DNA of 64,000 nucleotides from a virus. Within the stretch, counting starts at the first letter, position 1. Each line of letters opens with the position of its first letter. The position numbers and the translations under genes are program-made. The stretch lies in IMG/VR virus record IMGVR_UViG_3300024262_000018, positions 32,001-96,000 of that record; one strand, 5' to 3'. Below, in pieces: positions 1,466 to 52,816 of this stretch. The notes below the pieces were generated by a model. The model had not been told where the DNA came from, did not search any database, and worked only from the letters and a program-made list of their open reading frames with translations.

Positions 1466-1496
1466 ATCCAGCTCCTTATTATTCTATAAAATCAGC

Positions 1497-2009
1497 TTAC
1501 TGATCAGTCAACATAGCTTCAACGAACTCTGCCGGATACAGGTTGCTCCAGTAAGACTTCAACATCGTCCTTGTTTTGGCATCTAGCTTAGCGACCTTAA
1601 CATAGACTGGGGAAGTTTTAGCCTCTGTTTTCTTGTTCTCACAAGTAACAGCAGAAGGCTTTACACTTTCACCCTTCTGATGATTAGGCTCGCCCTTAAG
1701 CTGACCGCTTGTAGCAGCTTCGCCAGCCGAACCTTTTGCTTTAGTAGCAGTTGGTTTGGCCTTCTTTTCTTCTGCCTCTTCCTCTTCCGTCTCTTCTGCT
1801 ACTTTTACAGTCTTTTTGCCTGACGCCTCTACAGTTTCGTCTTCGACTTCTTCAACGTCATCGTCAGTTTCGTCGTCAGCATCTTCGATGGCGGCGGTTT
1901 TAACGACCTCATCTTTAGCAGCGGTTTTACTCATCTTCTCGTTAACGAGATCAGCAAAACTCTTTCCTTTTCCTACTTTAACTGTGTTTGTCATAAACTT
2001 AATAGCCAT
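1497..2009 (-). CDS. acidic low-complexity protein, possibly head/scaffold-associated
   Basis: 170 aa, D/E tracts, AAGGAG SD; C-terminal YWSNLYPAEFVEAML resembles YWTVLEPKSYVELMV in ORF 6413..6985. Confidence 0.6.
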   Translation of the reverse strand: MAIKFMTNTVKVGKGKSFADLVNEKMSKTAAKDEVVKTAAIEDADDETDDDVEEVEDETVEASGKKTVKVAEETEEEEAEEKKAKPTATKAKGSAGEAATSGQLKGEPNHQKGESVKPSAVTCENKKTEAKTSPVYVKVAKLDAKTRTMLKSYWSNLYPAEFVEAMLTDQ

Positions 2010-2107
2010 TCTTTAACTCCTTATGTATTTTTTGAAATACAGTCCTATTCTAAGTAATAATATATTCTTATCGAAAATCCTTTTATTTTTATTTATTTAT
2101 TCCGAAA

Positions 2108-3730
2108 TTATTGTGGGGTTCCTATTATTCCGCTGCCGGGAACCGCTTCTCCTGCCGCCCCTTGTTGATCATAATATCCCATCATTGGCTTTTTGCTCTG
2201 AACTTTTGCTTGAGCGGCCTCAATCTGAGCCATAACTCCTTCTATCGATTGGACCATTTGGTGAACTTTTCTAATAGCGTTGACTTTGCTCATAAATGAT
2301 TTTTTTAAGTTGTCAGGCAAACTATTAGACATTTTTAATGCTTTATTGGCAAAAGCGTCTAATAATTGTATAGCCTGGTCCATTCCCATTTGTTCCTCTG
2401 CTTGAGGGGCAGGTTGCGCTGCCGCTGGTTGTAAGCCTAGCACTGATTCGAAAGCAGTGCTAAACCATTGATTAAATTTGGGACCAAATTTATTCGCAAC
2501 AGCAGCCATAATTTGAGGAACCATCTGCGGGCTTATCTCAGGAAGAGTTTGTTGTGGAGTTTGTTGTGGATCTTGTTGGACTGCACCTACTTGAGACATT
2601 TTATAATTTTTAAGATTATAAGATGCTGATCTGGCTGGCTGTAGTGTACTTATGAACCACTGTCTTGCGGCTGCAAGGCCGTCAGGATTGCTCATAATAT
2701 TATTAACAATCTCAGATAGCTTAGACTCGTCAGCAGATTGGATTACTTCCATGATATCCTGCTGTTGCCCTTGTTGCCCAGGCTGTTGTTCTGTTTGCTG
2801 TTGAGTCTCTTCTTCTGCTTTTTGTTCAACCAAGCCTTCTTGCTGCAATAAGGCATCTAAAGCAGCCGTTGCTTGAGTAGCAATTTGAACTGCTTGATTC
2901 GCTTCCTTAACCGTTAAGAAAGCATTACGGAATGTAAGTAAAGATTTTTCGGCCTGCGTAACGAATGGTCTGATAGCCCGCGAGCCAAGACCGCTCCATT
3001 GCTGTAATTTATTTAGATTATTTACGATACTCTGAAAGAGATTTCCAATATTTCTGGTTTGCTTTAAGGCTTCTTGAGGATTGCTAATAACTTCTTGTAG
3101 ACGTTGTTTAATTAAATTTGCATCTTCCTTAAAGATATTTAAACTTTGCTTATAAAACTCATTTTTCCCCATAAGACCGCCCCAAAAACCAGCCTCTTTA
3201 ATAAGATTATGCGAAATAATCAGCAACTCATTAGATGCTTTTTTATCCATCTTTACTAATTTGGCGGATATTTTTAGAAGATCATCTGCTTTTTCGATCA
3301 AAGCGGTCGTTAACTTATAGCGTTCATTCGCGTCTATAGTAGAAAAAGCTTCAGTAACTGTCGCTCCAGATTTAACCAAATCAACTATTTTATCTGATAA
3401 TTCTTTATTTGCGGTTTTAACTATTGGAGTATCTATATCTGCGTATTTATCCCAACTGCTATCATTATCGTTAATAGACTTATTATACTCTTCCCAGCAA
3501 GAAAGAACGATATCTTGAGCAGACGTACCAGGCTTTTTAACCCTATTTTCACGGTAACATTTTTCCCAACAACGGGAGTTACGAATAGCGTACCCAAGCC
3601 CGCCTTCAAATTGGGCTTTGACAATTTTGTTTATAGACTTAGCAGTCTTATCTATCTGATCTGCATATGATTCCAGGCCAGACTTGTCTAATCTTTCAGA
3701 TAAATTAGCTAGAGCTTTAATTGTTTCCAT
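2108..3730 (-). CDS. large Gln-rich helical protein, putative internal head protein
   Basis: 540 aa, Q-rich linkers, position in packaging module; function inferred. Confidence 0.5.
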   Translation of the reverse strand: METIKALANLSERLDKSGLESYADQIDKTAKSINKIVKAQFEGGLGYAIRNSRCWEKCYRENRVKKPGTSAQDIVLSCWEEYNKSINDNDSSWDKYADIDTPIVKTANKELSDKIVDLVKSGATVTEAFSTIDANERYKLTTALIEKADDLLKISAKLVKMDKKASNELLIISHNLIKEAGFWGGLMGKNEFYKQSLNIFKEDANLIKQRLQEVISNPQEALKQTRNIGNLFQSIVNNLNKLQQWSGLGSRAIRPFVTQAEKSLLTFRNAFLTVKEANQAVQIATQATAALDALLQQEGLVEQKAEEETQQQTEQQPGQQGQQQDIMEVIQSADESKLSEIVNNIMSNPDGLAAARQWFISTLQPARSASYNLKNYKMSQVGAVQQDPQQTPQQTLPEISPQMVPQIMAAVANKFGPKFNQWFSTAFESVLGLQPAAAQPAPQAEEQMGMDQAIQLLDAFANKALKMSNSLPDNLKKSFMSKVNAIRKVHQMVQSIEGVMAQIEAAQAKVQSKKPMMGYYDQQGAAGEAVPGSGIIGTPQ

Positions 3731-11080: not shown

Positions 11081-13333
11081 TTATGCCTCTTCTTTTCTTA
11101 CGGCATTTAAATAGGCAACCAGTTGTGTATAATCTTTTGGGAGAAATGTCGAATACATCGCCCCATCATAGTTATAAGGTTGTGCGTAAGCCACCCATTC
11201 CTCCTCAAAATCAGTATCAAGCGAGTCATAAAAACCTGCTAATATTTGCCTGTGACCAATACCTCGGAAAAACTGAATAGCACGCTCCCATCGAGGTAAA
11301 CCTCCAGCGTCTAGATTATCATCCTCATCCACAACTTGTTTTTGTCTGTTCCAGTTTATTATTTTCATAGATGCATCAAGACCGAGCCAAGAACCATAAA
11401 ACGAACCAGGATTCATGTACCACGCACCAACCGCTCTCGCGTTATGGTACGGATCGAAAGAGTCGCTCCATGTGGAAACAGTTTTAGATGGATCAGACAA
11501 TTGTATAATATTAAAAATACTAGCAATAAAATCAGCCAATTGCTGTCCCTGTGTCCCAAGGCTCGTACAGGCTGGATCCCAGCCGGACAAACGGATCTCA
11601 TCTGCCATGATAGAGTACTCATCCGGATCCCATTGATTACGCAGCTCTGTCATAATGGTTGACAGCCTAGCTCTATAAACTGTATCACTATAGCAGGGTC
11701 GCCAAGCCCCCCTGTAAAAACCGATATGATAGTAGGAACAAAGAACGACATCATCTGTGCTTAAAGCTGAGCCAACCTTGTTCATTTCAGGGACAGGAGT
11801 ATGCCATATCGAGCCATAGGGCATTGCGGTTCGAATGTTAATATCTTCTGCATTCTCAAAATCAACACCTTCCGTATACGTCGTGAGCCCATCTTCTGAG
11901 GTCATTATAAAAGGTGTATTATCTCGCCGGAGAACGTTCATTATGCCGGCGGGGGCAAATACTAATGTATCGAAGTCAATCGAACCAACCGTGGCGGAGG
12001 TTGATGGAGAAATATAAAAATAAATCTTCTCCGATTCCTGAGTATTAAATGTGAGGTTAATTTCTGTCCAATCCGCGTTAACGCTCTGTTGATAGTTTTG
12101 GAAGGTATATGTGGGGTATTCAACGCCGTCTACCGTACGCCACCCAATAGTAGTAACGCGAATAGTAGAATCATCATAATCTACACTGGCTTTTACGCGA
12201 AATGATACATGAACATAAGTGTGTTCTGTAGGGTCTAACACGCCAACATACCAGGGTGAATCGCCTACAGCGATATTCGTGTTTCCGGCTGGAACGACTG
12301 CATTAAAACGAATATCCAAATCATTCGGATCTGGTACGATAGAACCATCACCTTGCACGATAAACCGCATCTCAGTCGCAGGCATCCCCTCCGCTATAAC
12401 CTCCGCAGACTCGCCATCGGTGTAATAGTTGTCAGTGTAATTACTTGGATTCATACATCCTAACACGAACGTCATGCCAATTTCCCGTGCGTGTTCGCGT
12501 ATCGCAGTCATGCGAGCCAAACTAGCCTCCGACCACTGCTCAATAAACGCCCACCAACTAAATGCGAAAAACACACCTGTGTAACCAGCAGCCAACGCTG
12601 CATCCATAATAGCTATCTGCTCAGTATCATCCCCTTCGTCCTGGCACGAACTACCAGCGAACACCCAATGATTATAATTCCTTAAAATAGGAGAAAGATA
12701 TATATTAAATATAAAAGAAGAAAAACCCATCCATGTTATATAAAAAGTATATGCTCCCACAGTTCTTGTTATAGAATCTCCAATATTTAAAAATGTATAT
12801 TCTCCCGATCCACCAAAATCCCAAACAAACTGATCGTCAGATATCGCTACAGTAAAAGAATTACCATAAACTATAACAGTAGCCGTTGTAAGACCACCGA
12901 TTAAATTAAATTTAATACTTACGTCACTCTCAACAGTATAAGTAGATCCAGCATCTAATATAACATATTCTATATTTTCATCATCTATGGTAAAACCCAA
13001 TCTGTCAGAGAATAAAGCGAAATAATATCCAACCCGGATATCGTTATCTTTGAGATAGGCGTTTAAGTCCCCGTAGCTATTAATAATCCTCTGCTGCAAT
13101 GCTGTGATTACTCTATCTACGGTAGCATATCTATTGATAAAAACAGCGTCATTATTATTGATAGACCTCGAAATCTCATTTTTTAGACTTATAACGGTTG
13201 GGTCATTAACGGGGGCTGCTAAATAAGAAGACGTATTATACATTAACGACTCTATATCATTAATTATATATTCGGACTCTATAATAGAGGATAAGTAGTC
13301 GCTATAATCTTGGTATATCTCTGGAGTAATCAT
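11081..13333 (-). CDS. putative glycoside hydrolase (GH20-like TIM barrel with carbohydrate-binding insert) fused to phage N-terminal domain
   Basis: IMADEIR (DE pair), WSDSFDPYHNA, IINWN; galactose-binding-like segment; GC visibly higher than flanks. Confidence 0.55.
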   Translation of the reverse strand: MITPEIYQDYSDYLSSIIESEYIINDIESLMYNTSSYLAAPVNDPTVISLKNEISRSINNNDAVFINRYATVDRVITALQQRIINSYGDLNAYLKDNDIRVGYYFALFSDRLGFTIDDENIEYVILDAGSTYTVESDVSIKFNLIGGLTTATVIVYGNSFTVAISDDQFVWDFGGSGEYTFLNIGDSITRTVGAYTFYITWMGFSSFIFNIYLSPILRNYNHWVFAGSSCQDEGDDTEQIAIMDAALAAGYTGVFFAFSWWAFIEQWSEASLARMTAIREHAREIGMTFVLGCMNPSNYTDNYYTDGESAEVIAEGMPATEMRFIVQGDGSIVPDPNDLDIRFNAVVPAGNTNIAVGDSPWYVGVLDPTEHTYVHVSFRVKASVDYDDSTIRVTTIGWRTVDGVEYPTYTFQNYQQSVNADWTEINLTFNTQESEKIYFYISPSTSATVGSIDFDTLVFAPAGIMNVLRRDNTPFIMTSEDGLTTYTEGVDFENAEDINIRTAMPYGSIWHTPVPEMNKVGSALSTDDVVLCSYYHIGFYRGAWRPCYSDTVYRARLSTIMTELRNQWDPDEYSIMADEIRLSGWDPACTSLGTQGQQLADFIASIFNIIQLSDPSKTVSTWSDSFDPYHNARAVGAWYMNPGSFYGSWLGLDASMKIINWNRQKQVVDEDDNLDAGGLPRWERAIQFFRGIGHRQILAGFYDSLDTDFEEEWVAYAQPYNYDGAMYSTFLPKDYTQLVAYLNAVRKEEA

Positions 13334-19486: not shown

Positions 19487-19490
19487 ATAT

Positions 19491-19573
19491 AGAGTGGTAG
19501 AATAATTGGTAATTCACTGGACTTTGAATCCAGGTCCGAAAGGATAATGAAGGTTCAAATCCTTCCCACTCTA
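19491..19573 (+). tRNA. tRNA-Gln(TTG) with long variable arm
   Basis: AGAGTGG/CCACTCT, CTGGA-CTTTGAA-TCCAG, V-arm GTCCGAAAGGAT. Confidence 0.85.
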
Positions 19574-19586
19574 TTATAATATTTAT

Positions 19587-19669
19587 AGAGCGATAGAGTA
19601 ATTGGCAACTCACCGGACTCTGACTCCGGACTCGTAAGGGTATTGAAGGTTCAAATCCTTCTCGCTCTG
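19587..19669 (+). tRNA. tRNA-Gln(CTG) with long variable arm
   Basis: AGAGCGA/TCGCTCT, CCGGA-CTCTGAC-TCCGG, V-arm ACTCGTAAGGGT. Confidence 0.85.
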
Positions 19670-19756
19670 TTAAACAAATATTTAGTTTCTTGAAGGAAAT
19701 AGCGTAAAGAGTTAGTATGTATTATCACGCTACGTTATTTGCTAAGGAATTATAAA

Positions 19757-31668: not shown

Positions 31669-32060
31669 AAATTAGAAATGGTTTCGTGTCGAACTCAAGC
31701 AGTTCAAGCTTTTGCCTCTATGGAGCTTGCCTCGATAAAGGAGAAATGCTTGAAATTAAATTTAAAGATACAAAAAATAAAGAAGATTACGACGAGTATG
31801 ATGACGACGAAGAGTTCGGTGACAATTGGGAAAGGCTAGAAAAAGCCCTCCATGAATTTAATTTGTCTGGGGAGGGGGACTATGACTGGACGGATATATA
31901 CATAGGAAGAAGTTGGACTAAAATAAAAGATGAAGAAACTGCCAGACAATTTAAAGATAATATAGAAAAAGATATAAAAGCCTTCTTTCACACATATCTA
32001 CCAAACTCTGAACAAATAATAGAATATGGAACATATGAAGAAGCATGGTATCCTAGTTAA
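31665..32060 (+). CDS. MKIRNGFVSNSSS-motif protein 3
   Basis: start reassigned; ATGA overlap with previous gene. Confidence 0.75.
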   Translation: MKIRNGFVSNSSSSSFCLYGACLDKGEMLEIKFKDTKNKEDYDEYDDDEEFGDNWERLEKALHEFNLSGEGDYDWTDIYIGRSWTKIKDEETARQFKDNIEKDIKAFFHTYLPNSEQIIEYGTYEEAWYPS

Positions 32061-35511: not shown

Positions 35512-37221
35512 ATGAATGTCTTTGAAGTAAATGTCGGCAAAGTGACTCTAACTAAAAACGACTTCGTAAGAAGTGGTGGACAAGCCGATGTCTATGCCAA
35601 AAAAGATAAGGCTTATAAAATATATAGTGACAAAAATTATGTTATCCAGCAAGCTAAAATACAAGAACTATCTCTGATATCGAATAGTGACATTATTAAA
35701 CCATTAAATCTCTTATTAGATAAGCAAGATAATCCTGTTGGATACTCTATGAGATTCATTGACAAAAATGTGGTTTTGTGTCAACTTTTTACAAAGATAT
35801 TTAAAAACCAAAACGGAATTACAGCTCAAAATATTTGCAATTTAATAACAGATATTAAAAATAAAATACAAGAAGTTCATAATAATAAAATACTCATTGT
35901 CGATCTAAATGAAATGAATATCTTAGTACAGCAGTGCAATTTCGAAAAATCTTTTTTAATTGATGTAGATAGCTATCAAACTCCTAGTTTTTCAGCAACA
36001 GCCCTTATGGAGAATATACGAGATAGACACAATAAAAACTTTAGCGAAAATACCGATTGGTTTTCCTTCGCCATTTTAAGCTGCTATCTATTAGTCGGCA
36101 TACACCCGTACAAGGGCAAGCACCCAGATTTTGTTGGAAATTCGTCTAACATTCTTGATAAACGAATGAAATTGAACGTGTCTATTTTTAATAAAGATAC
36201 GACTATACCTATAACATGTGCTCCAATTAAAGATATACCCGGCAGTTATAAATCCTGGTACATCGATGTTTTTGAAAATGGAAGAAGGTGCCCGCCACCA
36301 GAGATAACGCCTGCCACTATTATCGCCATACCGCAATATGCAGGTATAGATATTAATACTAATCTCGTTATAACCAAATTGTTTGAATATAATAGCGAGA
36401 TATTGAAGTATAAGACTATTAACGGGTATAGGTTCTGCGTAAATAAATCTGGCGGCTTTATAAATGATAAAAAAGAAAATAATCTAAAATTACTATCTGA
36501 AATCGCCATAACCCCGAAATTCAACAGGACTATAATCGCAATTCTTGAAAACGATAAGTTGAAATTATATGATGCTTTTTTTGGAAAAGAAATTGAAACG
36601 GATATCACTGGCCAAACGATATTGTCATATGACGGAAGACTATATATAAAAAATAATGAAAGTTTATACGAACTAGAGTTTATGGAATTGCCGACAAAAA
36701 CACTAGCCGCGATGACATTGGTTGGTAATATTTTAGAAAATGCCACGCAGATTTTTGATGGGGTTCTTTTTCAAAACCTATTAGAATCCACTTTCTGTTC
36801 CATATTCCCGCAAAAACAAAAACATGTACAACTACAGATAAAAGAGCTAAATGGATACTCCATTATTAATGCTAAATTCGAAAATGATATTTTAATGATA
36901 GTCGGGAGAAAAACAAGTTCTCAAAACTCCCAAACAGATAAGTTTATTATACACATAAAAGATGAGGAGTATACATATAGAAAAATAGAAAATACGCAAG
37001 ATTCCGATATAAATTTCGCGGTTCTTGATAATGGTATTTGCTCTAATTACGTTGAAGAAGGCGAAATAGAATTATTCCACAAAAGTGATATAAATGGAGC
37101 AATAAGACGAATTAAAGATAATGCGATTAAAGATGTGAGACTGCACAAAAATGGGACAAAAGTTCTATTTGTGCAGGATAAAAGGGTATATTTGGTAGAA
37201 ACTCAGAAAAAAGGAAAATAG
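35512..37221 (+). CDS. Ser/Thr protein kinase-like protein
   Basis: SGGQADVY, AYKIY, IVDLNEMNILV, IDVDSY, TDWFSF, GIHPYKG. Confidence 0.88.
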   Translation: MNVFEVNVGKVTLTKNDFVRSGGQADVYAKKDKAYKIYSDKNYVIQQAKIQELSLISNSDIIKPLNLLLDKQDNPVGYSMRFIDKNVVLCQLFTKIFKNQNGITAQNICNLITDIKNKIQEVHNNKILIVDLNEMNILVQQCNFEKSFLIDVDSYQTPSFSATALMENIRDRHNKNFSENTDWFSFAILSCYLLVGIHPYKGKHPDFVGNSSNILDKRMKLNVSIFNKDTTIPITCAPIKDIPGSYKSWYIDVFENGRRCPPPEITPATIIAIPQYAGIDINTNLVITKLFEYNSEILKYKTINGYRFCVNKSGGFINDKKENNLKLLSEIAITPKFNRTIIAILENDKLKLYDAFFGKEIETDITGQTILSYDGRLYIKNNESLYELEFMELPTKTLAAMTLVGNILENATQIFDGVLFQNLLESTFCSIFPQKQKHVQLQIKELNGYSIINAKFENDILMIVGRKTSSQNSQTDKFIIHIKDEEYTYRKIENTQDSDINFAVLDNGICSNYVEEGEIELFHKSDINGAIRRIKDNAIKDVRLHKNGTKVLFVQDKRVYLVETQKKGK

Positions 37222-37483: not shown

Positions 37484-37750
37484 ATGAAATTCAAAGCAGA
37501 AAAACTAATTGGGTCAGTAGCGATATGTAATCTGGGAAGGATCGGTATTATTCAAAAAGTCAGATGTCTTAATGACGGATACCTTTGGGAAGGTGTGGGA
37601 ATATATGATAAAAAGAGATGGAGAAGTAAATGCCCTCTCCCTATTGCCTGGTCTATGGAAGATTACACTAAACATCAAAAAAGTTGGAAAGAACTACGAA
37701 CTGATATAAAAAGAGAGGCAATTGAAAATGGCAAAAATAACAAAAGATAA
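37484..37750 (+). CDS. hypothetical protein
   Basis: short ORF with GGAG SD. Confidence 0.5.
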   Translation: MKFKAEKLIGSVAICNLGRIGIIQKVRCLNDGYLWEGVGIYDKKRWRSKCPLPIAWSMEDYTKHQKSWKELRTDIKREAIENGKNNKR

Positions 37751-38471
37751 TAAAGCTGAATTAATAGATTTGGAAGACGATAAAACCGTAAGTCCAAAGG
37801 CTAAAATTACAACCCATTATCTATTAATCCTTGATAAGAGTTCATCTATGATGGTGGCTCAAGAAAACACGATTAAAGGGTTCAATGAAAATATCAAAAC
37901 AATAAAAGAATTAGCAACAAAGCATCCTAATCAAGAATTTTATATTTCTTTGGTTATGTTTAATCATGAAGTCGAAACTGTTCTTTGGGAACGTCCGCTA
38001 ACAGATATAAATTATATTGACAACACAGTATATTCTCCTTCCGGCCTGACCGCTCTACACGATGCTCTTGGTTCTAGTATGGACAGACTTGAAAAAGAAT
38101 TAAAAGATGAGTTGGATAAAAATAAAGATTCAAAAATTGTCGTAACCATATTCACTGATGGAGCAGAGAACGCTTCTAAGGACTATGCTCATGCCCAGAT
38201 AGCCGATAAGTCTGAAGTCCTACAAAAAACAGAACAATGGCTTTTTAGCTATATCGGAGCGAATCATGATGTTGCCTATGTCGCTAAATCATTAAATATC
38301 CCATTAAGTAATACAATGAAGTATTCAAGTTCTATGGTCGGGACCGCACAAGCGTTTGACAATCAGACAAAAGGACTACACAAATATGTATCTGATCGCT
38401 CGCTAGGCATCACGGATAATCATTTGTACACTGAAAAAGAAGATCTATTAGATATCAGTGATGATGAATAG
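37728..38471 (+). CDS. vWA domain protein
   Basis: ILDKSSSM, GLTALHDA, IFTDGAENAS, FSYIGAN. Confidence 0.88.
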   Translation: MAKITKDNKAELIDLEDDKTVSPKAKITTHYLLILDKSSSMMVAQENTIKGFNENIKTIKELATKHPNQEFYISLVMFNHEVETVLWERPLTDINYIDNTVYSPSGLTALHDALGSSMDRLEKELKDELDKNKDSKIVVTIFTDGAENASKDYAHAQIADKSEVLQKTEQWLFSYIGANHDVAYVAKSLNIPLSNTMKYSSSMVGTAQAFDNQTKGLHKYVSDRSLGITDNHLYTEKEDLLDISDDE

Positions 38472-38480
38472 CGGCTAAAA

Positions 38481-38552
38481 GCTCATATCCGCTAACTGGT
38501 AAGCGAAAAGACTCTAAATTTTTTAATCGAGGTTCGAGTCCTCGTATGGGCG
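38481..38552 (+). tRNA. amber suppressor tRNA (anticodon CTA)
   Basis: GCTCATA/TATGGGC, D-stem CGCT/AGCG, AAAGA-CTCTAAA-TTTTT, CGAGG-TTCGAGT-CCTCG, G73. Confidence 0.85.
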
Positions 38553-38607
38553 ATTTCAATAAAGGAATTATAAAAATTTTCGATAATAGAATAACAAGGA
38601 GACAATT

Positions 38608-38937
38608 ATGACTTAGCTTAACAATAACACGCCGTATATTTATATTATCACTCGAAAAGACTTAACATTCCCACAGAAGGCTGTACAATCTTCTCATGCC
38701 GCAATTGAAGCCGCAAAAGCTTTTTATGACCCATCGGTTATAGATCATCCACATCTGGTTCTATCTGAACTCCCCTCTGAATTACATTTGCTCAAATTTA
38801 TTAATAAATTATCTGCGGAGAGCTTGCGCTTTATTATCTGGAGAGAACCAGATCTAAATGAGGTCACAGCGATTGCAACAGAACCGATTTTTGGAGCAAA
38901 AAGAAAACTTTTTAAGAAACTTCAACTTTTAAAATAA
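38608..38937 (+). CDS. pth2: peptidyl-tRNA hydrolase type 2 with in-frame TAG at codon 3
   Basis: AAGGAG SD, ATG ACT TAG then open frame YIYIITRKDLTFPQKAVQSSHAAIEA...WREPDLNEVTAIATEP; not in ORF track. Confidence 0.8.
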
Positions 38938-39422: not shown

Positions 39423-39511
39423 GTATTTTTAACAAACATTAAAGGAAAATGCTCTATTACGCGACATTATAGTATAGAAGTTTTTGTCATTTTTACTTAT
39501 TGGAGTATTCT

Positions 39512-39769
39512 ATGAAACGAGTCGGCAAGAAATGGATAGGACACCCTGTAAAGGTTGAAATTCTTGATCACGCCGAAAATGTTGGGAATGTCGTGCCAAT
39601 AAATGTATATGGAATATTACAAAAAGTCTCCAAAACTCAAATACTAGTTCGTTCTTGGGATGCTGGAGAAGAATTGTCTAAAGAGATATCCAATTGCAAT
39701 ACTGACTTTTCTATAGTCCGATCAGCAATAATTCGATTTACCCCGTTAAAACCTTTTTATAATAAATAG
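39512..39769 (+). CDS. hypothetical protein
   Basis: likely start MKRVGK after GGAG. Confidence 0.5.
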   Translation: MKRVGKKWIGHPVKVEILDHAENVGNVVPINVYGILQKVSKTQILVRSWDAGEELSKEISNCNTDFSIVRSAIIRFTPLKPFYNK

Positions 39770-39854: not shown

Positions 39855-42800
39855 ATGAGATACAAAATATCACAAGCAAATATGAGTATACAAGGACCAG
39901 CAGTTGTATCACTAATACAGATAGTACAACAAATGTATGGATTAGGGGCTCCAACGACTTTTGACGATCAAGGATTCAACAAAACAGACTATGTAAACTC
40001 TAATTTTCAGTATATTGCTCGGCTCCCAGTAAGTGATAGAACTCAACTGCCTATACAACAAGCTGTTGCGGCTGTTCAGTCTTTAGGGAAATATAAAAAA
40101 ACACAACTGGCGGGAACGTGGGAACAACTATATGCAGATATACAAAAAGCGATCAATGAAGCTCAAGGGCAATCGGAAGTTCCAAATACTACTCCTGTAG
40201 AGCAGAACAAAGTTTTATATAAAGGAAGAAACCGATGGGGGAATGATAGTTATTACATCTTCAGTTTAACACCGCAGAAATATAATAGTATGTTGCGTCT
40301 TGTCGGGGCAAAGCTAGGAGAGATGGGACAAAACGCATCGAACGCTTGGAAGGCTTTTTATAAAGACAAAAAAGGAGGATTAGACCTCTACCAGATAGAC
40401 CCACGATTTACTGTTTTCCTTAAAGATTTACTTGCAGGCTATGGCTACGATACGTCTGAAATGTTCATCCGCGATGAAAAAGCTGACGAAATAAAAAAAC
40501 CTACAGAAGAAGATAGTGAATATAGTAAAGATGACATACAGAAATTTCAAATTAAAAAGGTAGAATTAGCGAACGGGAAATTAACAGTAATTCTAGGAAG
40601 ATGGTCAACTCTCTGGAATGAGACTATACGAAATCTAAAAGAAAATTATACTATAGGCTATAGTAAGCATGATCATGCCAGGATATTTACAAATCCAGAT
40701 AAGGTTTTGATAACAACATTAATAAACGCATTAAAAAATGAATTTGACGTAGCCCCGTTAGAAGCATTATTAGAACAGGTCCCTGATAAAATTGATCAGC
40801 CAAAACCGGCTAGCCAAGTTATTATTACAGATAAGGGGATACAGTTAAATGTCGTAAATGTTTTGGAGAACACTAAAGGAAAGTGGCATATTGCTATTTC
40901 ATACTTAAAAAAAGGCACTAAAGAGGGCAAGACTTTATTAGATATTATAAAATTTATTTGTCCCGCTTTTGGAAAAGACGAAAGTAGATTTTCAGGGGTT
41001 ATTCCAGACATCTCTAATCCATACGATCCAGCGGATAAAAAAGATCCTGATTATCCCGGCGATGGTGGCGGATATAACTATGCATATTTGATTAAAGGTG
41101 ATTATAACCAATATAGACAGTTGAGTATGATATTCAAAAAATATGGATTTGACACCAGGAATCTTAATAAAATTATAGCAGGCTTAGTTTCCGAAGGTGT
41201 AGTAGAAACTACAAGAGTAGAAGGGGATCTGGATGGCTATCAAAAAGAAGTCGGCTTTACTGACGCCGCCGGAAACAGAAGGACAACTAAAGTTAATGAT
41301 CATGATAAGTTTATAAAAGAATTAGATACTTATAATAAAAAAATAGTTAAAGACGGCAAAGAATTTGATTTTGCTCTTTATCCTCTTCAACGCGAAGGCG
41401 TGGCCTTCCTTTACGGTAGAAACTCTGCCCTTTTAGGCGATGCAACCGGCGTGGGAAAATGCAAAATTGGAACATCACATGTCCAAACAAATTTAGGAGA
41501 CTTTGAAATCCAAGACATATGGAATAAATTTGCAAAAAAAATATCTTCCGTAAAAGAAAATGAAGAATGGGGAGATCTAAATGTAGATTTATGCGTCCAT
41601 AGTATTAATAACGACGGGAAGGTTGTTAGAGGAAAAGTAAATAAGTTGTATAGGGAAAGATTTAAAGGAAAACTGATTAAATACAAAACAGATAATGGCA
41701 AAGAAACAGTTGTAACAAGAGCACACAAATTCTTAACTGAAAACGGATGGAAAAATGACCTGTCTGTCGGAGATCGGATTTGTTCATCTTCAAATCAATT
41801 TTCTATACATGAGCCAAATAATACAAAAAAAGATCTTGCCTATTTAATTGCCTGGCAAATAGCAGAAGGGTGTGAACTTGATAATAAAATACATTCTCAA
41901 ACGAGCTTAAGTATAAACCAAAAAGATAAAAATATTTTAGAAAATTTATCAAAAATTATCAAAAGCCTTAATATAACAAAATACAGATCAATAAAAAAGA
42001 TAGAACCTAGAATTAAAAAAATAATAAGACATGGAAATCAGATTAATCGTATGGAACTAACATCTGTTAATTATAAAAAATATCTTGAAAGTCTAGGATA
42101 TGCATGGGGGCTAAAATCTAAAGACAGAGTTGTTCCAGAGTTTATTATGAATTCTTCGGATGAGGTTGTGAAATATTTCTTACAAGCATTCTTTGACGCT
42201 GAAGGATACACTAGTAATCAAGCTAGAGGAATTGCCGTAACCTCAGCTAGTCAAAAACTCATTTATCAAATTTCATTATTATTACAAAGATTTAACATCT
42301 TTTGCACCTATAGAAAAATGATGAAGTGTTCCACAAACGGGACAAAAATAAAACGTCCATATTATGAATTAAAAATTGTAGGAAGTGGCATGGATATTTT
42401 TATGCGAGAAATAAAATTTTCATATGTTTATAAAACTAAAAAATATAATAAATTTACTGACGTAAAATATAACTATAATAAAGAAGGAAAACCCATCTAT
42501 TTGGCGTTAGAACCGTTTTTTAAAAAATACAAATTGCCACCCAAAATAATAGGGCTTAATGACGACGCCTATATTTCCGGAGACAAATGGATGAACGATG
42601 ATAGTATAGAAAATGTTATTAATAAATTGAAAAAGTTTAGAAATTCTAAAATAATAAATGAATATGCCCAATTAAAAAGATCAAAATGGACAAATTCGAC
42701 AACTGCCGTTTTAGAGCATATAGAAATAAAAGATGTAGAAAACTGTATCCAATCACTAGAAAAATTAAAAAATAATGATCTTCAATATGAGAAAATAATT

Positions 42801-44408
42801 TCCGTAGAAGAGATCTCCCACGATGGATATATTTATGATTTAAGTATCGAAGAAAACCACAACTATATTTCTGATAATTTAATTTGCCATAACACAATAG
42901 AGACTATCATAGCTGCCGATATGAGAATGAAAAATTCTGGCGGAAGCTGTTTAATAATTACGCTTACCGTTGCTCAAGAACAATGGGCTAGTGAGATAGA
43001 AAAGTTTGCGAAGCATAACCCCGAAGACATATCTCTCAGTCCAGACGAATTAAAAACATGGAATGTTTTAACATATCCTATGTTCCAAACCAAAAGTACT
43101 AGAGAAGCAACTGTTAAAAAATTACAAGATTATGTTAGAAGCGGAAAAATTACTTGCCTAATACTGGACGAATGCCATAGTGTTAAAAACAGTGGAGCAT
43201 CTAGAACGGAAAATATACAAAATATATCTGACGTTATTGACGTAGATAAAGACAAGGTTAAATTAGCAGAATATCAAATTCCTTTTGTTTGGGGAGCGAG
43301 TGCAACTGTTGTTGCGAATAGGCCCGTTGACGTATATAACCAACTGAAGGCTATAAACCATCCATTAGGTAAATTGAGCTTTGCTAATTTTGCCAAAGAG
43401 TTCGGAGGAATGAAACCTGGGCGTTATGGCTGGGAAGACACTAGTATAGAGGAACAGATAAAAGCCGCGAATAAACTAAAAGAATGGTTGATAAATTTTG
43501 GGGTATATATAGCTAGAACCAAAAAAGATATTAGAGAAGATATGCCAGAACTTTATGTCGATGACGAATTTGCTCAAGTTGACCAGGCCAATTTATACAA
43601 GTGTGTAAGTTCAAAAGTCTCTGGATATAAAAAACCAGAATTGCCAATTTCTGTTATGATGGCTACAAGAGACTGTTTAGCTCTTGCCAAAACTCCACAT
43701 TCATTATCACTCGCAGAACCGATATTAAAAAGTGGAAAGAAAATAATGATTTTCACTGCTTTCAAAGCTGCTGCTAAGTATTTGGAATATGGACTGCAAA
43801 GAATACTAGATTCTATAGGAGAAGGGGGCCAAGTAGGAATTATAATAGGAGGGATGCATAAAAAGACCAGGTCTGAAAATATAACTAATTTTAAAGATCC
43901 AAATAGCGACATAAAAGCTATGGTATTAATGATACAGGCGGGCGGAACGGGCTTAGATTTTCCAAATGTTGTTGAAGATGTTATAGAAAATGACTTTGAT
44001 TGGACTCCGGCCTCTAACGAACAGATGAAAGGTAGAGGTTACAGAATAACAAGCAAATTGCCAGTTAGAATTAAATCTGTTATTGCGGAAGGAACAGAAG
44101 ATGAAGACTTTAAACAAAGAGTTGATTCGAAAATAGAAGTTGCCGAAATCGTTATGAAATTAACAAAAGAGCAATTAGAACTTTTTTCTTTATCAGAATC
44201 AGAAAAAACACAAAGTGTAAAAAATAGATTGCAAGATATAGAACAACAACTGATAGAAGCGGTTAAGCGACAGATTGAGCAAGAAGAAACGGAAGCGGAA
44301 TTTGAAGAGCATATGGCTACTCAAATTAGAAATAAAATGGGAATGTCGGACAGAAGCACTTTTGCTAAAACTAATTGGTATAGGAAAACTTGTTTTGGGA
44401 GAAAATAA
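39855..44408 (+). CDS. SNF2-family helicase containing an intein
   Basis: LYPLQREG, GDATGVGK|T, LILDECH, SATVVAN, AGGTGLDF, QMKGRGYRI. Confidence 0.9.
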   Translation: MRYKISQANMSIQGPAVVSLIQIVQQMYGLGAPTTFDDQGFNKTDYVNSNFQYIARLPVSDRTQLPIQQAVAAVQSLGKYKKTQLAGTWEQLYADIQKAINEAQGQSEVPNTTPVEQNKVLYKGRNRWGNDSYYIFSLTPQKYNSMLRLVGAKLGEMGQNASNAWKAFYKDKKGGLDLYQIDPRFTVFLKDLLAGYGYDTSEMFIRDEKADEIKKPTEEDSEYSKDDIQKFQIKKVELANGKLTVILGRWSTLWNETIRNLKENYTIGYSKHDHARIFTNPDKVLITTLINALKNEFDVAPLEALLEQVPDKIDQPKPASQVIITDKGIQLNVVNVLENTKGKWHIAISYLKKGTKEGKTLLDIIKFICPAFGKDESRFSGVIPDISNPYDPADKKDPDYPGDGGGYNYAYLIKGDYNQYRQLSMIFKKYGFDTRNLNKIIAGLVSEGVVETTRVEGDLDGYQKEVGFTDAAGNRRTTKVNDHDKFIKELDTYNKKIVKDGKEFDFALYPLQREGVAFLYGRNSALLGDATGVGKCKIGTSHVQTNLGDFEIQDIWNKFAKKISSVKENEEWGDLNVDLCVHSINNDGKVVRGKVNKLYRERFKGKLIKYKTDNGKETVVTRAHKFLTENGWKNDLSVGDRICSSSNQFSIHEPNNTKKDLAYLIAWQIAEGCELDNKIHSQTSLSINQKDKNILENLSKIIKSLNITKYRSIKKIEPRIKKIIRHGNQINRMELTSVNYKKYLESLGYAWGLKSKDRVVPEFIMNSSDEVVKYFLQAFFDAEGYTSNQARGIAVTSASQKLIYQISLLLQRFNIFCTYRKMMKCSTNGTKIKRPYYELKIVGSGMDIFMREIKFSYVYKTKKYNKFTDVKYNYNKEGKPIYLALEPFFKKYKLPPKIIGLNDDAYISGDKWMNDDSIENVINKLKKFRNSKIINEYAQLKRSKWTNSTTAVLEHIEIKDVENCIQSLEKLKNNDLQYEKIISVEEISHDGYIYDLSIEENHNYISDNLICHNTIETIIAADMRMKNSGGSCLIITLTVAQEQWASEIEKFAKHNPEDISLSPDELKTWNVLTYPMFQTKSTREATVKKLQDYVRSGKITCLILDECHSVKNSGASRTENIQNISDVIDVDKDKVKLAEYQIPFVWGASATVVANRPVDVYNQLKAINHPLGKLSFANFAKEFGGMKPGRYGWEDTSIEEQIKAANKLKEWLINFGVYIARTKKDIREDMPELYVDDEFAQVDQANLYKCVSSKVSGYKKPELPISVMMATRDCLALAKTPHSLSLAEPILKSGKKIMIFTAFKAAAKYLEYGLQRILDSIGEGGQVGIIIGGMHKKTRSENITNFKDPNSDIKAMVLMIQAGGTGLDFPNVVEDVIENDFDWTPASNEQMKGRGYRITSKLPVRIKSVIAEGTEDEDFKQRVDSKIEVAEIVMKLTKEQLELFSLSESEKTQSVKNRLQDIEQQLIEAVKRQIEQEETEAEFEEHMATQIRNKMGMSDRSTFAKTNWYRKTCFGRK
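41460..42893 (+). mobile_element. intein with LAGLIDADG endonuclease in helicase Walker A
   Basis: CKIGTSHV start, TRAHKF block B, AWQIAEG / AFFDAEG, ICHN|T end; 478 aa. Confidence 0.9.
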
Positions 44409-48973: not shown

Positions 48974-51900
48974 ATGACAGAAACGATCAGCGATAATAAA
49001 ACAAATCAATTTATAAACATGCCCGAGGTAGAAATAACTACAAGATTTGAAGATGTAAAAACCCAAACGACTGAAGATTATTTCCAAAATAATCAATTTT
49101 CTATTGACGCTTTTAATAAAAAATATACGCTATTCGATGGCGAGACATACGTTATGGCAATAAAAAGAGTATGTGATTTTATCGCTTCAGCAGAAAAGAC
49201 TAATAAACTAAAAACATATTGGTCAAACCGATGGTTTGATGAAATATATAATGACTGGTGGCACCCGGCAGGAAGCATAATGCAGGGAGCCGGATCAGAA
49301 AAAAAAATAAGCTTATCAAATTGTACGTGCATCTCCTTGGGTAATGAAAGACCAGATGAAGAGTGGGATAATCTAGAGTCTATTATTAAAAATTCGTCTT
49401 ATGCTATAGCTAAAACCGCTGCTTATCGGCAAGGTTTAGGCATAGACTTCTCTCGCCTCAGGCCCAACAAAGCAAAAATAATGAACTCAGCAAACGAAGG
49501 GCAGGGCTGCACTCATTGGATGAAGTTTGCCGATTCTATTGGATATTATGTGGGACAAAAAGGAAGAATTCCTGCATTTTTATTTTCACTAAAATGCTCC
49601 CACCCAGATGTAGAAGAGTTTATAAAAATAAAATCCGATTATACAAAAATTCAAAATGCTAATATATCAGTACAATGCACAGATGATTTCTATAAGGCTA
49701 TAGAAACTAATTCAGACTGGGATCTATCTTTTGAAATCCCAGAAGTTAAAATAGGACAAAAAGTTTATATTGACATTCATAGTACAGACATGGATAGTCA
49801 GTATGATAAAAAGAAAAAGAGATGGTATTATATCGCAAAAAAACATCGTCCTTTCGAAAAAATTTCCAAGAAGGTTAATGCTAAAGAACTTATGGAGCTT
49901 ATCGCAAAATGCATGCATGCTAATGCTGAGCCAGGAATACAAAATATAGATATAGCAAGAAAATATTCAAACTCAGATTATGTTTATAATCCGGAAGATA
50001 TATATGATAGTAGAATAGTAGGAACAAATGCCCCTCTTATCGGCTCTACAAAAATTCCTACTAAAAACAAAATCACTACCATTAAAGAATTGTATGAAAA
50101 GTATGAGCAAGGAAATAATATTGAGTTAATATCTGACACTATTTCGTCTTTGCCCAAAGGGCATATTGATTGGCTGCAAAACAAAAATCAGAGAGGAATA
50201 AATTATTTCCCAACACAAACATTCCCCGTCCCAGCAAAAATTAAAAAATTCCCAAACCAAAAAGTTTGGAAAATTGTTTTGTCTAATCAAAAAGAGTTGT
50301 TCTGCAACGGAGAGCATTCATGGTTGGTTAATGGGGAAATGACACCAACTAAGAATATCAAAGCTGGAGATAAGATGTTCTCTCCCAACGGCGGGGTAGT
50401 TGATGCTTATGGTATTGAACCCAATTTTGAGTCTCAACCTTTTAAAGATGGCGAATTAATTGGGTATATTGTTGGTGACGGCTGGATAGGAAAGAAAAGC
50501 AATATACATAATGAATCTATTGGTATTGTTTATGACGAAGATTGTGAATATTACAGTAAATTATTCAGAAAGAAATTTTTTGAAATAACCGGAACATCTT
50601 TAAATTACGAAAGAGATAGAGGGAAGATTAAAGAAGTTAGAACAGAAAGCACTAAGTTTGTACAATGGGTAAAGTCATTTGGTTTTGATAAAAACAAAAA
50701 CCATACTCCTGCACGATGCTTTGAAGATATTGATTTTTGCAGAGGTTTTCTTAGAGGCTTGTTCCAAGCAGATTCTCATGTAGAGCTTAGTAAACGTCAA
50801 AGTCGCGTAACCTTAACATCTGTTTCTAAATCATTAATTTTAGATGTAGAATCGTTGTTGTCTAATTGGTTTGGTATTTATCCTACGATTAAGGAATCAG
50901 AGTGTAGAGGAGTCCCATACGGAGATGGGAAAATCAGTAATGCAAAAAATAGATTCGATTTACGTTTCGGAAGATATGATTTTATTGATAAATTTACAAA
51001 AAATGTAGGATTGATAGGTAAAAAGGGCGAGAAGTTATTTGCTGCATTAAAAAATAATAATCAAAGAAATATTCGTAATTTCAAATTAGTCACTTCAGTA
51101 GAAGAAACAGATGATGTCCAAGATATGTACTGTGCTGTTGTTGATGGCATTCATTCCTTTGTTGCAAATGGATGTTTGTCCTCAAATTGTTCCGAGCAGT
51201 ATCTTTCGCGCGATGGGCTTTGCGTTCTATCTTCTGAAAATATGGGGAGATTCGATACGGATCCGGAGATCTATGAAAAGCAACAGGAACGAATTTCCTA
51301 TTCAATGAATAGATTTCTTGATGATGTTAATACAATGGAAATAAAGAGCGGGACTTATGCAACGCCATTTCAAAAAATAGGTATAGAAAAACTTAGAAGA
51401 ACAGGAGCGGGGGTTACTAACATAGATGGGTGGCTGTTTAAAAAGGGATTACAATATGGAACACCTGAAGCTAATGAGGCCGTGGCTAAATTAATAGAAA
51501 CGTTTAACTATTACCTTTATAAGTCTTCGATAGAAATTGGAAAAGAAAAAGGTAGTTTCGGGTTATTTGATAGGTCTAAATTCGAAAAATCTCCATTTAT
51601 AAAAAGAATGATTGAAAAAGGTTTAATTTTTGAAACTATAAGAAATTGCACGTGCTCAAGCATCGCTCCAACAGGTACGATCTCTCTTATGTTTCGAGGG
51701 CTTGTTTACTCGTATGGAATAGAGCCGTCTTTTGGTGTCTATTTCTGGAAACGAACGAGGATGTCTGGCAACTATGAATATTATTTTTATGTTCCATATG
51801 TTGTAAGAGAACTATTAAAGAAATCAGGAATAAACCTCCCGATGGAAGGAGACTGCATAAAGGACACTATCGACGGGAAATACGGAAAACCAATTGCTAA

Positions 51901-52816
51901 AATAATAGACGAGGAGCTAAAAAATATAAATTTTAACTTTAAAGAATCTACCGAAATAAAAGCAATGGACAAATTAGATCTCATGGCAAAGGTTATGAAA
52001 TGGATAGATTCATCTATCTCTGTCACTTATATGTTGCCAGAAAATTCAAAATGGCAAGATGTATATGATTTTATTATAGAAGCCCATAAAAAAGAAGTTA
52101 AAAGTATTGCGTGTTTTCCTGATAAAAAAATGTATGGTATAGTCTCACTAATTCCATTTTTAGATTTAGCAGTAAATCTTACGAACGAAGGTGTAGAAAT
52201 ATCAGATCAAAATTTCTCCGAAGATGAGATAGATTTGTTAAAAAAACTGACAAATAGATATCAAGAGGAAAATGTCGAAAATAAAATAATAAAAACAACC
52301 GCTCCGAAACGCCCAAAATTACTTCCCTGCGATATGCATCACATTAAAGTTACAAAGAAATTAGACAAAATAAGAACTTTTGATTATATTGTGTTCGTAG
52401 GTCTATTACACAACAATCCATACGAAGTTTTTGTTATGGAAAATGGACATATTAATAAAAAACACAAACAAGGAACAATAACTAAAAAGAAAAGAGGAGT
52501 TTATGGTGCGAATTTTGATGAGGAATCGATTGAAGATATAACATCTAATTCTTCCGAAACAGAAGATATTTTAACCCGCCTTGTCTCTACAAGTCTTAGG
52601 CATGGGGCAGATATAGCCTTTATTGTAGAACAACTTGAAAAATCAGAAGGAGATCTATTCTGTTTTTCAAAAGCGATAAGTAGAGTACTAAAAAAATATA
52701 TAAAAGACGGATCTGTTGTAAACGGAATAAGTTGTCAAAAGTGTGGGGGTAAAAATATGATTAGACAATGTGGGTGTGCTGTCTGTGGAGATTGTGGATA
52801 TAGCAAATGCGAATAA
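48974..52816 (+). CDS. nrdJ: class II (adenosylcobalamin-dependent) ribonucleotide reductase with intein and C-terminal Zn ribbon
   Basis: SLSNCT, GIDFSRLRP, ANISV, AEPG, TNA|CSE, IAPTGTIS, DSSISVT, terminal CxxC..CxxCGYSKC. Confidence 0.9.
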   Translation: MTETISDNKTNQFINMPEVEITTRFEDVKTQTTEDYFQNNQFSIDAFNKKYTLFDGETYVMAIKRVCDFIASAEKTNKLKTYWSNRWFDEIYNDWWHPAGSIMQGAGSEKKISLSNCTCISLGNERPDEEWDNLESIIKNSSYAIAKTAAYRQGLGIDFSRLRPNKAKIMNSANEGQGCTHWMKFADSIGYYVGQKGRIPAFLFSLKCSHPDVEEFIKIKSDYTKIQNANISVQCTDDFYKAIETNSDWDLSFEIPEVKIGQKVYIDIHSTDMDSQYDKKKKRWYYIAKKHRPFEKISKKVNAKELMELIAKCMHANAEPGIQNIDIARKYSNSDYVYNPEDIYDSRIVGTNAPLIGSTKIPTKNKITTIKELYEKYEQGNNIELISDTISSLPKGHIDWLQNKNQRGINYFPTQTFPVPAKIKKFPNQKVWKIVLSNQKELFCNGEHSWLVNGEMTPTKNIKAGDKMFSPNGGVVDAYGIEPNFESQPFKDGELIGYIVGDGWIGKKSNIHNESIGIVYDEDCEYYSKLFRKKFFEITGTSLNYERDRGKIKEVRTESTKFVQWVKSFGFDKNKNHTPARCFEDIDFCRGFLRGLFQADSHVELSKRQSRVTLTSVSKSLILDVESLLSNWFGIYPTIKESECRGVPYGDGKISNAKNRFDLRFGRYDFIDKFTKNVGLIGKKGEKLFAALKNNNQRNIRNFKLVTSVEETDDVQDMYCAVVDGIHSFVANGCLSSNCSEQYLSRDGLCVLSSENMGRFDTDPEIYEKQQERISYSMNRFLDDVNTMEIKSGTYATPFQKIGIEKLRRTGAGVTNIDGWLFKKGLQYGTPEANEAVAKLIETFNYYLYKSSIEIGKEKGSFGLFDRSKFEKSPFIKRMIEKGLIFETIRNCTCSSIAPTGTISLMFRGLVYSYGIEPSFGVYFWKRTRMSGNYEYYFYVPYVVRELLKKSGINLPMEGDCIKDTIDGKYGKPIAKIIDEELKNINFNFKESTEIKAMDKLDLMAKVMKWIDSSISVTYMLPENSKWQDVYDFIIEAHKKEVKSIACFPDKKMYGIVSLIPFLDLAVNLTNEGVEISDQNFSEDEIDLLKKLTNRYQEENVENKIIKTTAPKRPKLLPCDMHHIKVTKKLDKIRTFDYIVFVGLLHNNPYEVFVMENGHINKKHKQGTITKKKRGVYGANFDEESIEDITSNSSETEDILTRLVSTSLRHGADIAFIVEQLEKSEGDLFCFSKAISRVLKKYIKDGSVVNGISCQKCGGKNMIRQCGCAVCGDCGYSKCE
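50033..51187 (+). mobile_element. class 3-type intein with LAGLIDADG endonuclease
   Basis: starts PLIGST, block B CNGEHSW, block F MYCAV, ends LSSN|C; removal restores TNACSE; 385 aa. Confidence 0.8.

Follow-up and report, generated by a model that had tools for sequence, protein, structure and literature searches.

The window analysed here is a stretch of 64,000 nucleotides, positions 32,001 to 96,000 of the IMG/VR virus record IMGVR_UViG_3300024262_000018. It carries a gene for a protein of the Pth2 fold with an in-frame TAG at codon 3, and a tRNA gene with the amber-suppressor anticodon CUA ends 55 nt upstream of the ATG of that gene. From comparison of the sequences, we put at about 80% the probability that the suppressor tRNA encoded by the phage itself gates translation of the Pth2-family protein. 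As judged by its distribution among homologs, the gate is ancient, conserved across very distant phages of the standard code and matched to the anticodon of the linked tRNA. A readthrough-controlled switch in a genome that is not recoded had been proposed for this locus from the letters of the window (the original prediction), and the conserved early stop, together with the agreement between stop type and linked anticodon, supports it. The locus consists of the following parts:

38481–38552, + strand: amber-suppressor tRNA, anticodon CUA (ARAGORN; Rfam RF00005, 54.6 bits, E 6e-11)
38553–38595, + strand: spacer between the tRNA and the ribosome-binding site
38596–38601, + strand: Shine-Dalgarno sequence AAGGAG, 6 nt 5' of the ATG (from the sequence)
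38608–38613, + strand: two-codon leader ATG ACT (Met-Thr), with the ATG at 38608–38610
38614–38616, + strand: putative gating TAG at codon 3, which matches the anticodon of the upstream tRNA(CUA)
38617–38937, + strand: body of the Pth2-fold protein, 106 codons and a TAA at 38935–38937

The cloverleaf with a CTA anticodon that had been noticed at 38481–38552 was recognized by both ARAGORN and Rfam. The Rfam match was full-length with 0 non-canonical pairs flagged, and the 72-nt class I tRNA has a canonical cloverleaf and no encoded CCA. Its anticodon loop reads C32-U33-CUA-A37-A38, with U33 present and a purine at position 37. It is one of 13 tRNAs that ARAGORN detected in the window. Nearest-neighbour similarity gave no consistent answer as to its isotype, the top matches being scattered among Met, Arg, Trp, and others. 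No terminator-like site was found on the + strand between 38552 and 38608, and co-transcription of tRNA(CUA) and the gene is therefore likely. The mRNA structure around the early stop was not significant (z −0.40), and no candidate readthrough-stimulating RNA fold was found there.

The start of the gene reads AAGGAG-N6-ATG ACT TAG CTT AAC AAT, and the whole frame comprises 109 codons with the TAG counted. The ribosome-binding site, the ATG ACT TAG start, and the open frame were present in the sequence as described beforehand. The same was true of the lack of an alternative ATG near the start, since the first in-frame ATG, GTG, or TTG past the TAG is located 57 codons further on. Initiation at that downstream codon would remove strand 1, helix 1, and the invariant residues R16, D18, Q27, and H30.

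Conservation of the early stop and the linked tRNA

Scanning of IMG/VR with the family alignment yielded 80 loci at 30–53% identity, 66 of which were non-identical. The loci are related and not phylogenetically independent; for this reason, Fisher-type p-values are not quoted as probabilities. Followed upstream from the conserved core, the frame first meets a stop that is TAG in 54 of the 66 unique loci, where it comes after an ATG-initiated leader of 2–7 sense codons; in 2 more (L045 and L075), the gate was clearly TGA. A sense codon or a downstream start in the homologs had been named as the outcome that would speak against a switch; the early stop was instead retained. Among the 57 loci classed as gated by script, the leader had 2 codons in 34, 3 codons in 14, 4 codons in 7, and 7 codons in 2 loci, and it was in frame with the body in all 57.

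The same loci also supplied a control of some 2,650 other segments that are open over 90 codons or more, for which a leader of at most 7 codons and no canonical start within 15 codons past the stop were required. These strict criteria selected 21 control segments with TAA, 22 with TGA, and 18 with TAG (about 2%, no stop being preferred); they also selected the family gene in 35 of the 66 loci, 34 times with TAG. With gating in 54 + 2 of 66 loci versus about 2% of the control segments, the layout is far beyond chance.

Two relatives from JGI metagenomes with 84–86% identity (L120, positions 1512–1841, and L121, positions 3001–3294) kept the ATG ACT TAG. Both have an additional TAG in frame, at codon 43, which is TCG (Ser) in the window, and a second TAG near codons 37–43 was present in L040, L047, L058–L061, L065, L066, and L099 from IMG/VR as well as in the uncultured phage LR756501. 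L120 carries two tandem tRNA(CUA) genes. The base following the stop was a purine in 55 of the 57 gated loci (A in 36, G in 19), compared to 53% purines overall; in work from 1983 attributed to Bossi and to Miller and Albertini, a purine at this position reportedly favoured suppression in E. coli. A second candidate gated gene was observed in L048 (positions ~11230–11640, + strand), where a Shine-Dalgarno-like GAGAGGAC is followed by ATG, one codon, TAG, and 134 open codons. It has no start for 19 codons and lies about 0.5 kb past a tRNA(CUA) and 1.2 kb past the Pth2-like gene.

Comparison of the locus with cultured phages by blastn gave no match. Homologs with 30–47% identity were found in jumbo phages by tblastn against cultured and curated phage genomes, and they start as follows:

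Serratia phage BF and Erwinia phage pEa_SNUABM_19: MTH-TAG
Yersinia phage fHe-Yen9-04: MSH-TAG
Pectobacterium phage CBB and Cronobacter phage GAP32: MAQ-TAG
Kaldavass and XbC2: MAH-TAG
Acinetobacter phage ME3: MT-TAG (ATG ACT TAG, identical to the window)
Uncultured LR756511 (595 kb): MTH-TAG
Uncultured LR756500 (462 kb): MK-TAG
Uncultured LR756501 (735 kb): MS-TAG

The unannotated homolog of phage RsoM2USA (Ralstonia) starts AAGGAG-N7-ATG TTG TAG ATT, and the suppressor of this phage is of the CUA type. Phage Atu_ph07 (Agrobacterium) has a more canonical Pth2 gene that starts MIGEHF-TGA, and its suppressor is tRNA(UCA). In this gene, the 28 codons past the TGA, up to and through the first strand, contain no canonical start; the public record places the start of the coding sequence at an internal Met, which removes the first strand. 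The homolog of phage RaK2 has an ordinary start. In Xoo-sp13, XacN1, and RAS14, the domain is located at the end of a protein of ~280 residues with no stop, i.e., in an ungated fused form.

The flanks of the gene were surveyed for tRNAs with ARAGORN to a distance of 10 kb. Conservation of a neighbouring suppressor tRNA, by which the original prediction was to be checked, was confirmed: of the 54 TAG-gated loci, 43 had tRNA(CUA) within this distance and none had tRNA(UCA) alone. The cognate tRNAs found numbered 45; 44 of them share the strand of the gene, and 22 lie at most 700 nt upstream of it. Among the phages listed above, tRNA(CUA) was confirmed in BF, CBB, GAP32, ME3, and the uncultured LR756511. 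A 7-base anticodon-loop pattern tried for tRNA finding was uninformative and was replaced by a combined anticodon-loop and T-loop pattern. The latter misses tRNAs with odd T-loops, such as that of LR756500/L108, which was recovered by ARAGORN.

Both TGA-gated loci have a tRNA(UCA), located 329 and 112 nt upstream, and no tRNA(CUA). According to tblastn, L045 is the locus with the most neighbours in common with the window (a kinase-like gene, a VWA gene, a tRNA, and the Pth2-like gene). At 50% protein identity, its gene starts AAGGAG-N6-ATG AAG TGA GTT AAC AAT. Between the window and L045, stop and anticodon have changed as a pair in one and the same genomic context. L045 and L075 grouped together in a quick tree without Atu_ph07 (92 in the Shimodaira–Hasegawa-like approximate likelihood ratio test). 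In one further locus, L054 (IMG/VR 3300035698_008758), the TAG-gated gene is preceded at 245 nt by tRNA(CUA) and followed at 2.6 kb by tRNA(UCA); the locus adjoins L078 on the tree, which has TGA and then ATG, with tRNA(UCA).

Ungated members of the family also occur together with suppressor tRNAs. tRNA(CUA) was found 0.2–3.7 kb from the gene in L056, L074, L076, and L077 and elsewhere in the genome in Xoo-sp13, XacN1, and RAS14. Two tandem tRNA(CUA) genes of XacN1 (L030, positions 1469–3043) lie about 1 kb from a phage-encoded transfer-messenger RNA (tag ANANTFDYALAA), so that a ribosome-rescue RNA stands beside suppressor tRNAs.

A leader of this kind could also be an independent minigene similar to lambda bar, or a regulatory leader, at which translation always terminates. 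The Pth2-like frame would then be expressed with no suppression, either through re-initiation or from a non-canonical start immediately past the stop. ATT and GTT are frequent at the codon past the stop, and the former serves as a start in bacteria on rare occasions, as in infC; however, in many members this codon is not start-like (AAC, AAT, ACT, GAC, or GGC in other loci and CTT in the window). Open reading frames of 2–7 codons do promote peptidyl-tRNA drop-off, the more strongly the shorter they are (PMC2490762; PMC10192219), but a minigene followed by re-initiation does not need to be in frame with the body, as the leader always is. Moreover, the type of stop tracks the anticodon of the linked tRNA, and a dedicated cognate suppressor adjoins the gene. 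We consider an independent minigene quite improbable.

The Pth2-like protein and its annotation

The single protein sequence of the window scored 21.7 bits with PF01981 (PTH2), under the gathering cut-off of 23 bits, and also matched a PHROG of unknown function. Fused relatives were above the cut-off (Xoo-sp13, 29.5 bits; XacN1, 25.3 bits); the N-terminal domains of the fused members matched no Pfam or NCBIfam family. When a profile of 39 family members was compared with the PDB, solved Pth2 structures were retrieved, namely 24bt_A (E 6.1e-9) and 2zv3_A (E 6.8e-8), and also 3erj, 1q7s, 1rlk, and 1wn2. The alignment covered positions 10–111, which is the whole Pth2 domain. Thus, in the search against PTH2 by which the original prediction was to be checked, the family profile found Pth2, and the single sequence fell short of the threshold.

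The AlphaFold2 model built on the family alignment had a mean predicted local distance difference test score (pLDDT) of 93.3 and a predicted template modelling score of 0.85. In a Foldseek search with this model, the top 14 structures were all Pth2 or Pth2-like, with template modelling scores of 0.57–0.78; the best of them, 3erj, 2zv3, 1wn2, 1q7s, and 1xty, reached 0.74–0.78. Nine residues are invariant in the family (R16, D18, V26, Q27, H30, A31, L61, E80, and T87), most of which coincide with the Pth2 motifs R-x-D-L, Q-x-x-H-A, and T-A. Fold and motifs are therefore common to the phage protein and to Pth2 of PF01981 (3erj, 2zv3, 1wn2, 1xty, and human Bit1, 1q7s), from which the phage branch differs by a four-residue deletion in the D-A-G-x-T-Q loop. 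The assignment of the frame to the Pth2 type is borne out by profile homology and fold. According to sequence and model, the protein of the window belongs to a divergent branch of the Pth2 fold that is carried by phages, its hydrolase activity being only predicted. We know of no cellular Pth2 gene that is stop-gated.

The gene is unannotated in NC_041917, MW879342, NC_042116, and MG752970, and its start is set downstream in NC_041878, NC_019401, NC_041884, PQ464595, OP292654, and MF403008. It is missing or N-terminally truncated in these public records because gene callers halt at the early TAG or TGA. Some callers applied to metagenomes write Q at the stop: the database protein P0003 is the exact L120 sequence. 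Database proteins starting with MTQ are very probably gated genes translated by a recoding-aware caller, which is confirmed for P0003; in P0002 and P0004, Q was probably written at the stop in the same way. In practice, the gene is either missed or truncated by ordinary callers, or a Q is silently inserted by recoding-aware ones.

Such records might be taken as a sign of a nonsense mutation in a decaying gene, or of a sequencing or assembly error. Neither agrees with a stop whose position is shared by 56 of 66 loci and by about ten cultured phages, or with an intact body that has nine invariant residues and a fold modelled at a pLDDT of 93. This explanation has next to no probability.

Use of TAG in the phage genome

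The source record is 113,959 bp long and contains 30 tRNA genes. Its completeness was estimated by CheckV at ~26%, which makes it part of the genome of a huge phage. Genes for a large terminase and for a ribonucleotide reductase are present in the record. A greedy gene call of the whole record with the standard code gave 128 genes and 89% of coding DNA, with TAA as the stop of 85, TGA of 24, and TAG of 19 genes (15%). The large terminase ends in TAG, and so does the gene directly upstream of the tRNA(CUA):

37722–38471, + strand: VWA-domain gene (Pfam VWA, 26.6 bits; phrog_7371)

The TAG of the VWA gene (38469–38471) is genuine and precedes the tRNA by 9 nt. Coding density was 0.88 with TAG as a stop and 0.88 with TAG as a sense codon, i.e., there was no gain. 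Both strands of the 114 kb were scanned for an ATG that is followed by 1–7 codons and a stop, beyond which 80 or more codons are open. Among the 20 places found, the Pth2-like gene is the only one with a Shine-Dalgarno sequence and no nearby alternative start. From the genes ending in TAG, the unchanged density, and the single gated gene, we conclude that TAG is a working stop in this phage and that the early TAG is a local feature. The statement that other genes end normally at TAG and that the genome is not globally recoded thus held for the record.

Recoding of TAG in many genes (of the code 15 type) was not found in the 114 kb, about 26% of the genome, which contains one gated gene. No release factor was found in the contig. 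A second gated gene in the window (39449–39511, MLYYATL-TAG, in frame with an 85-aa open reading frame at 39512) was rejected as a probable chance occurrence because it has no good Shine-Dalgarno sequence and the reading frame at 39512 has its own GGAG-N6-ATG.

It might be argued that TAG is reassigned late in infection throughout the phage, as in crAss-like and Lak phages, and that the Pth2-like gene is one of many such genes, the rest being located in the three quarters of the genome that lie outside the record. Recoded phages with CTA suppressor tRNAs are well documented, just ~26% of this genome is covered, and several family members have a second TAG near codons 40–43 (L120, L121, and some from IMG/VR; LR756501 has two). 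However, no other gated gene was present in 114 kb that include structural and packaging genes, the terminase itself ends in TAG, and the density is the same under both codes. The complete genomes of cultured carriers are annotated in code 11, and the authors of the XacN1 study, who read through all 18 amber stops, found nothing (PMC5852040). Unlike the stops of random recoding, the early stop is at codons 3–8 in nearly all members. Late reassignment is, in our opinion, improbable.

Several other features of the record were observed. A protein-kinase-like open reading frame (35512–37221, + strand; weak Pkinase match of 19.6 bits) is located upstream of the VWA gene and tRNA(CUA). Since L045 has both of these frames as well, the order kinase, VWA, tRNA, gated gene is syntenic in two phages or more. 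In a helicase-like frame of 1517 aa (39855–44408, + strand), the middle part looks like an intein or homing-endonuclease insert that ends in ...CHN followed by T, as read from the translation. The large subunit of ribonucleotide reductase (48974–52816, + strand; 1280 aa) matched PHROG in two stretches, 44–335 and 739–1279, which suggests an insertion of ~400 residues such as an intein. Two tRNA-Gln calls (UUG, 19490–19574, and CUG, 19586–19670, + strand) are 85 nt each, unusually long for class I, and may reflect an intron, an extra arm, or a wrong isotype call.

Proposed mechanism and comparison with known systems

Under suppression-gated expression, one transcript probably contains both tRNA(CUA) and the gene, and the tRNA is excised from it. 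Ribosomes would initiate at the strong Shine-Dalgarno sequence and ATG, make fMet-Thr, and reach the UAG at codon 3. If the charged suppressor beats release factor 1 (RF1), the 109-residue Pth2-family protein with a predicted hydrolase role would be produced. If RF1 wins, the dipeptide alone would be formed and then released or dropped off, so that failure would be cheap. Since drop-off is greatest for the shortest open reading frames (PMC2490762; PMC10192219), the dipeptide may leave as peptidyl-tRNA. The enzyme would be made in proportion to suppressor activity, and its amount would report the performance of the suppressor.

A number of observations weigh against gating of the protein by the suppressor. 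In 11 of the 54 TAG-gated loci, there is no tRNA(CUA) within 10 kb; in these, the tRNA may be more distant, which is the case in Atu_ph07 and RsoM2USA. L045 and L075 belong to one group, and the combination of TGA with tRNA(UCA) therefore represents about two independent events, one in this group and one in Atu_ph07; the ambiguous L078 would make a third. In the window, the stop is followed by C, one of just two pyrimidine exceptions. Coverage of the phage genome is ~26%, and other TAG-bearing genes may therefore exist. Finally, the position of the Pth2 catalytic Asp is occupied by an invariant Glu (E80) in the phage family, and that of the catalytic Lys by K24 in the window and by Q in 27 of 39 members, where we take the catalytic residues to be K18 and D86 of S. 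solfataricus Pth2. Hydrolase activity is consequently not assured.

Because the ungated members also adjoin suppressor tRNAs, the enzyme and the suppressor seem to serve one process. Linkage of protein and tRNA even without a gate (L056, L074, L076, L077, and the XacN1 group) is predicted by a functional partnership and would not be predicted by mere regulatory convenience. The enzyme might clear peptidyl- or acyl-tRNA by-products of suppression, in which case its amount would scale with suppression, or it might exert feedback on the charged form of the suppressor itself. Provided that the gene is gated, we give roughly equal weight to these two roles. The feedback role amounts to a homeostat, which we regard overall as rather unlikely: the Pth2-like enzyme would act on the acylated or peptidyl form of the suppressor, or on products arising from suppression only, and, as synthesis of the enzyme needs the suppressor tRNA, suppression would be held at a set level. 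If this were true, the pair of tRNA and sensor would make a suppressor safe for a phage of the standard code to carry, and full stop-codon reassignment in phages could have evolved from it.

Gating itself, if true, would be a new viral coupling of a translation-maintenance enzyme to the state of termination. The module gives the orphan suppressor tRNAs of phages a specific and conserved target, in phages that are already grown in the laboratory, and it may mark an intermediate step towards reassignment of a stop codon.

In programmed readthrough, as in Qbeta A1 and murine leukaemia virus gag-pol, a stop that ends a complete open reading frame is read at low frequency by a near-cognate tRNA of the host, and a C-terminal extension results. 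The present stop, by contrast, is at codon 3 with nothing functional before it, and a dedicated cognate tRNA adjoins. In the full-text literature, including the main papers on recoding, we found no description of a single conserved gene gated at codons 3–8 by a linked cognate suppressor in phages of the standard code.

In recoded phages (crAss-like, Lak, and other gut phages), suppressor tRNAs read TAG or TGA as an amino acid (Borges et al., bioRxiv 10.1101/2021.08.26.457843; PMC13037316); 26–71% of genes, mainly late and lysis genes, carry scattered in-frame stops, and coding density collapses in code 11. The system described here has in common with them that a CTA or TCA suppressor would decode an in-frame stop in a standard-code host and that expression would depend on it. 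It differs in having one gated gene per genome, with the stop at codons 3–8 and an otherwise standard code. Orphan suppressor tRNAs have been reported for standard-code jumbo phages XacN1 (PMC5852040), RsoM2USA (PMC8504454), and Atu_ph07 (PMC6102473), and these papers give no target of the suppressor or guess at "several potential genes." All three phages carry a member of the family, with the gate in RsoM2USA and Atu_ph07 and as an ungated fusion in XacN1.

The start of the gene resembles lambda bar and other toxic minigenes of 2–8 codons (PMC2490762), which likewise consist of a Shine-Dalgarno sequence and ATG, one to six sense codons, and a stop; by analogy, peptidyl-tRNA drop-off relieved by Pth would be expected if termination were slow. 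Unlike those minigenes, which stand alone, the leader runs on in frame into a conserved protein and has a cognate suppressor tRNA as its partner. The individual parts, i.e., suppressor tRNAs, recoding, the Pth2 fold, minigenes, and amber switches, are known, and their combination is new to the literature searched. The nearest engineered counterpart is the synthetic amber switch, such as the feed-forward "leak dampener" based on a suppressor tRNA (PMC7969014), in which an early TAG in the target and an inducible suppressor form an AND gate in the same manner. If our interpretation is true, the phage module is an amber-suppression AND gate of the kind otherwise built by synthetic biologists, and it differs from theirs in being natural, ancient, and widespread.

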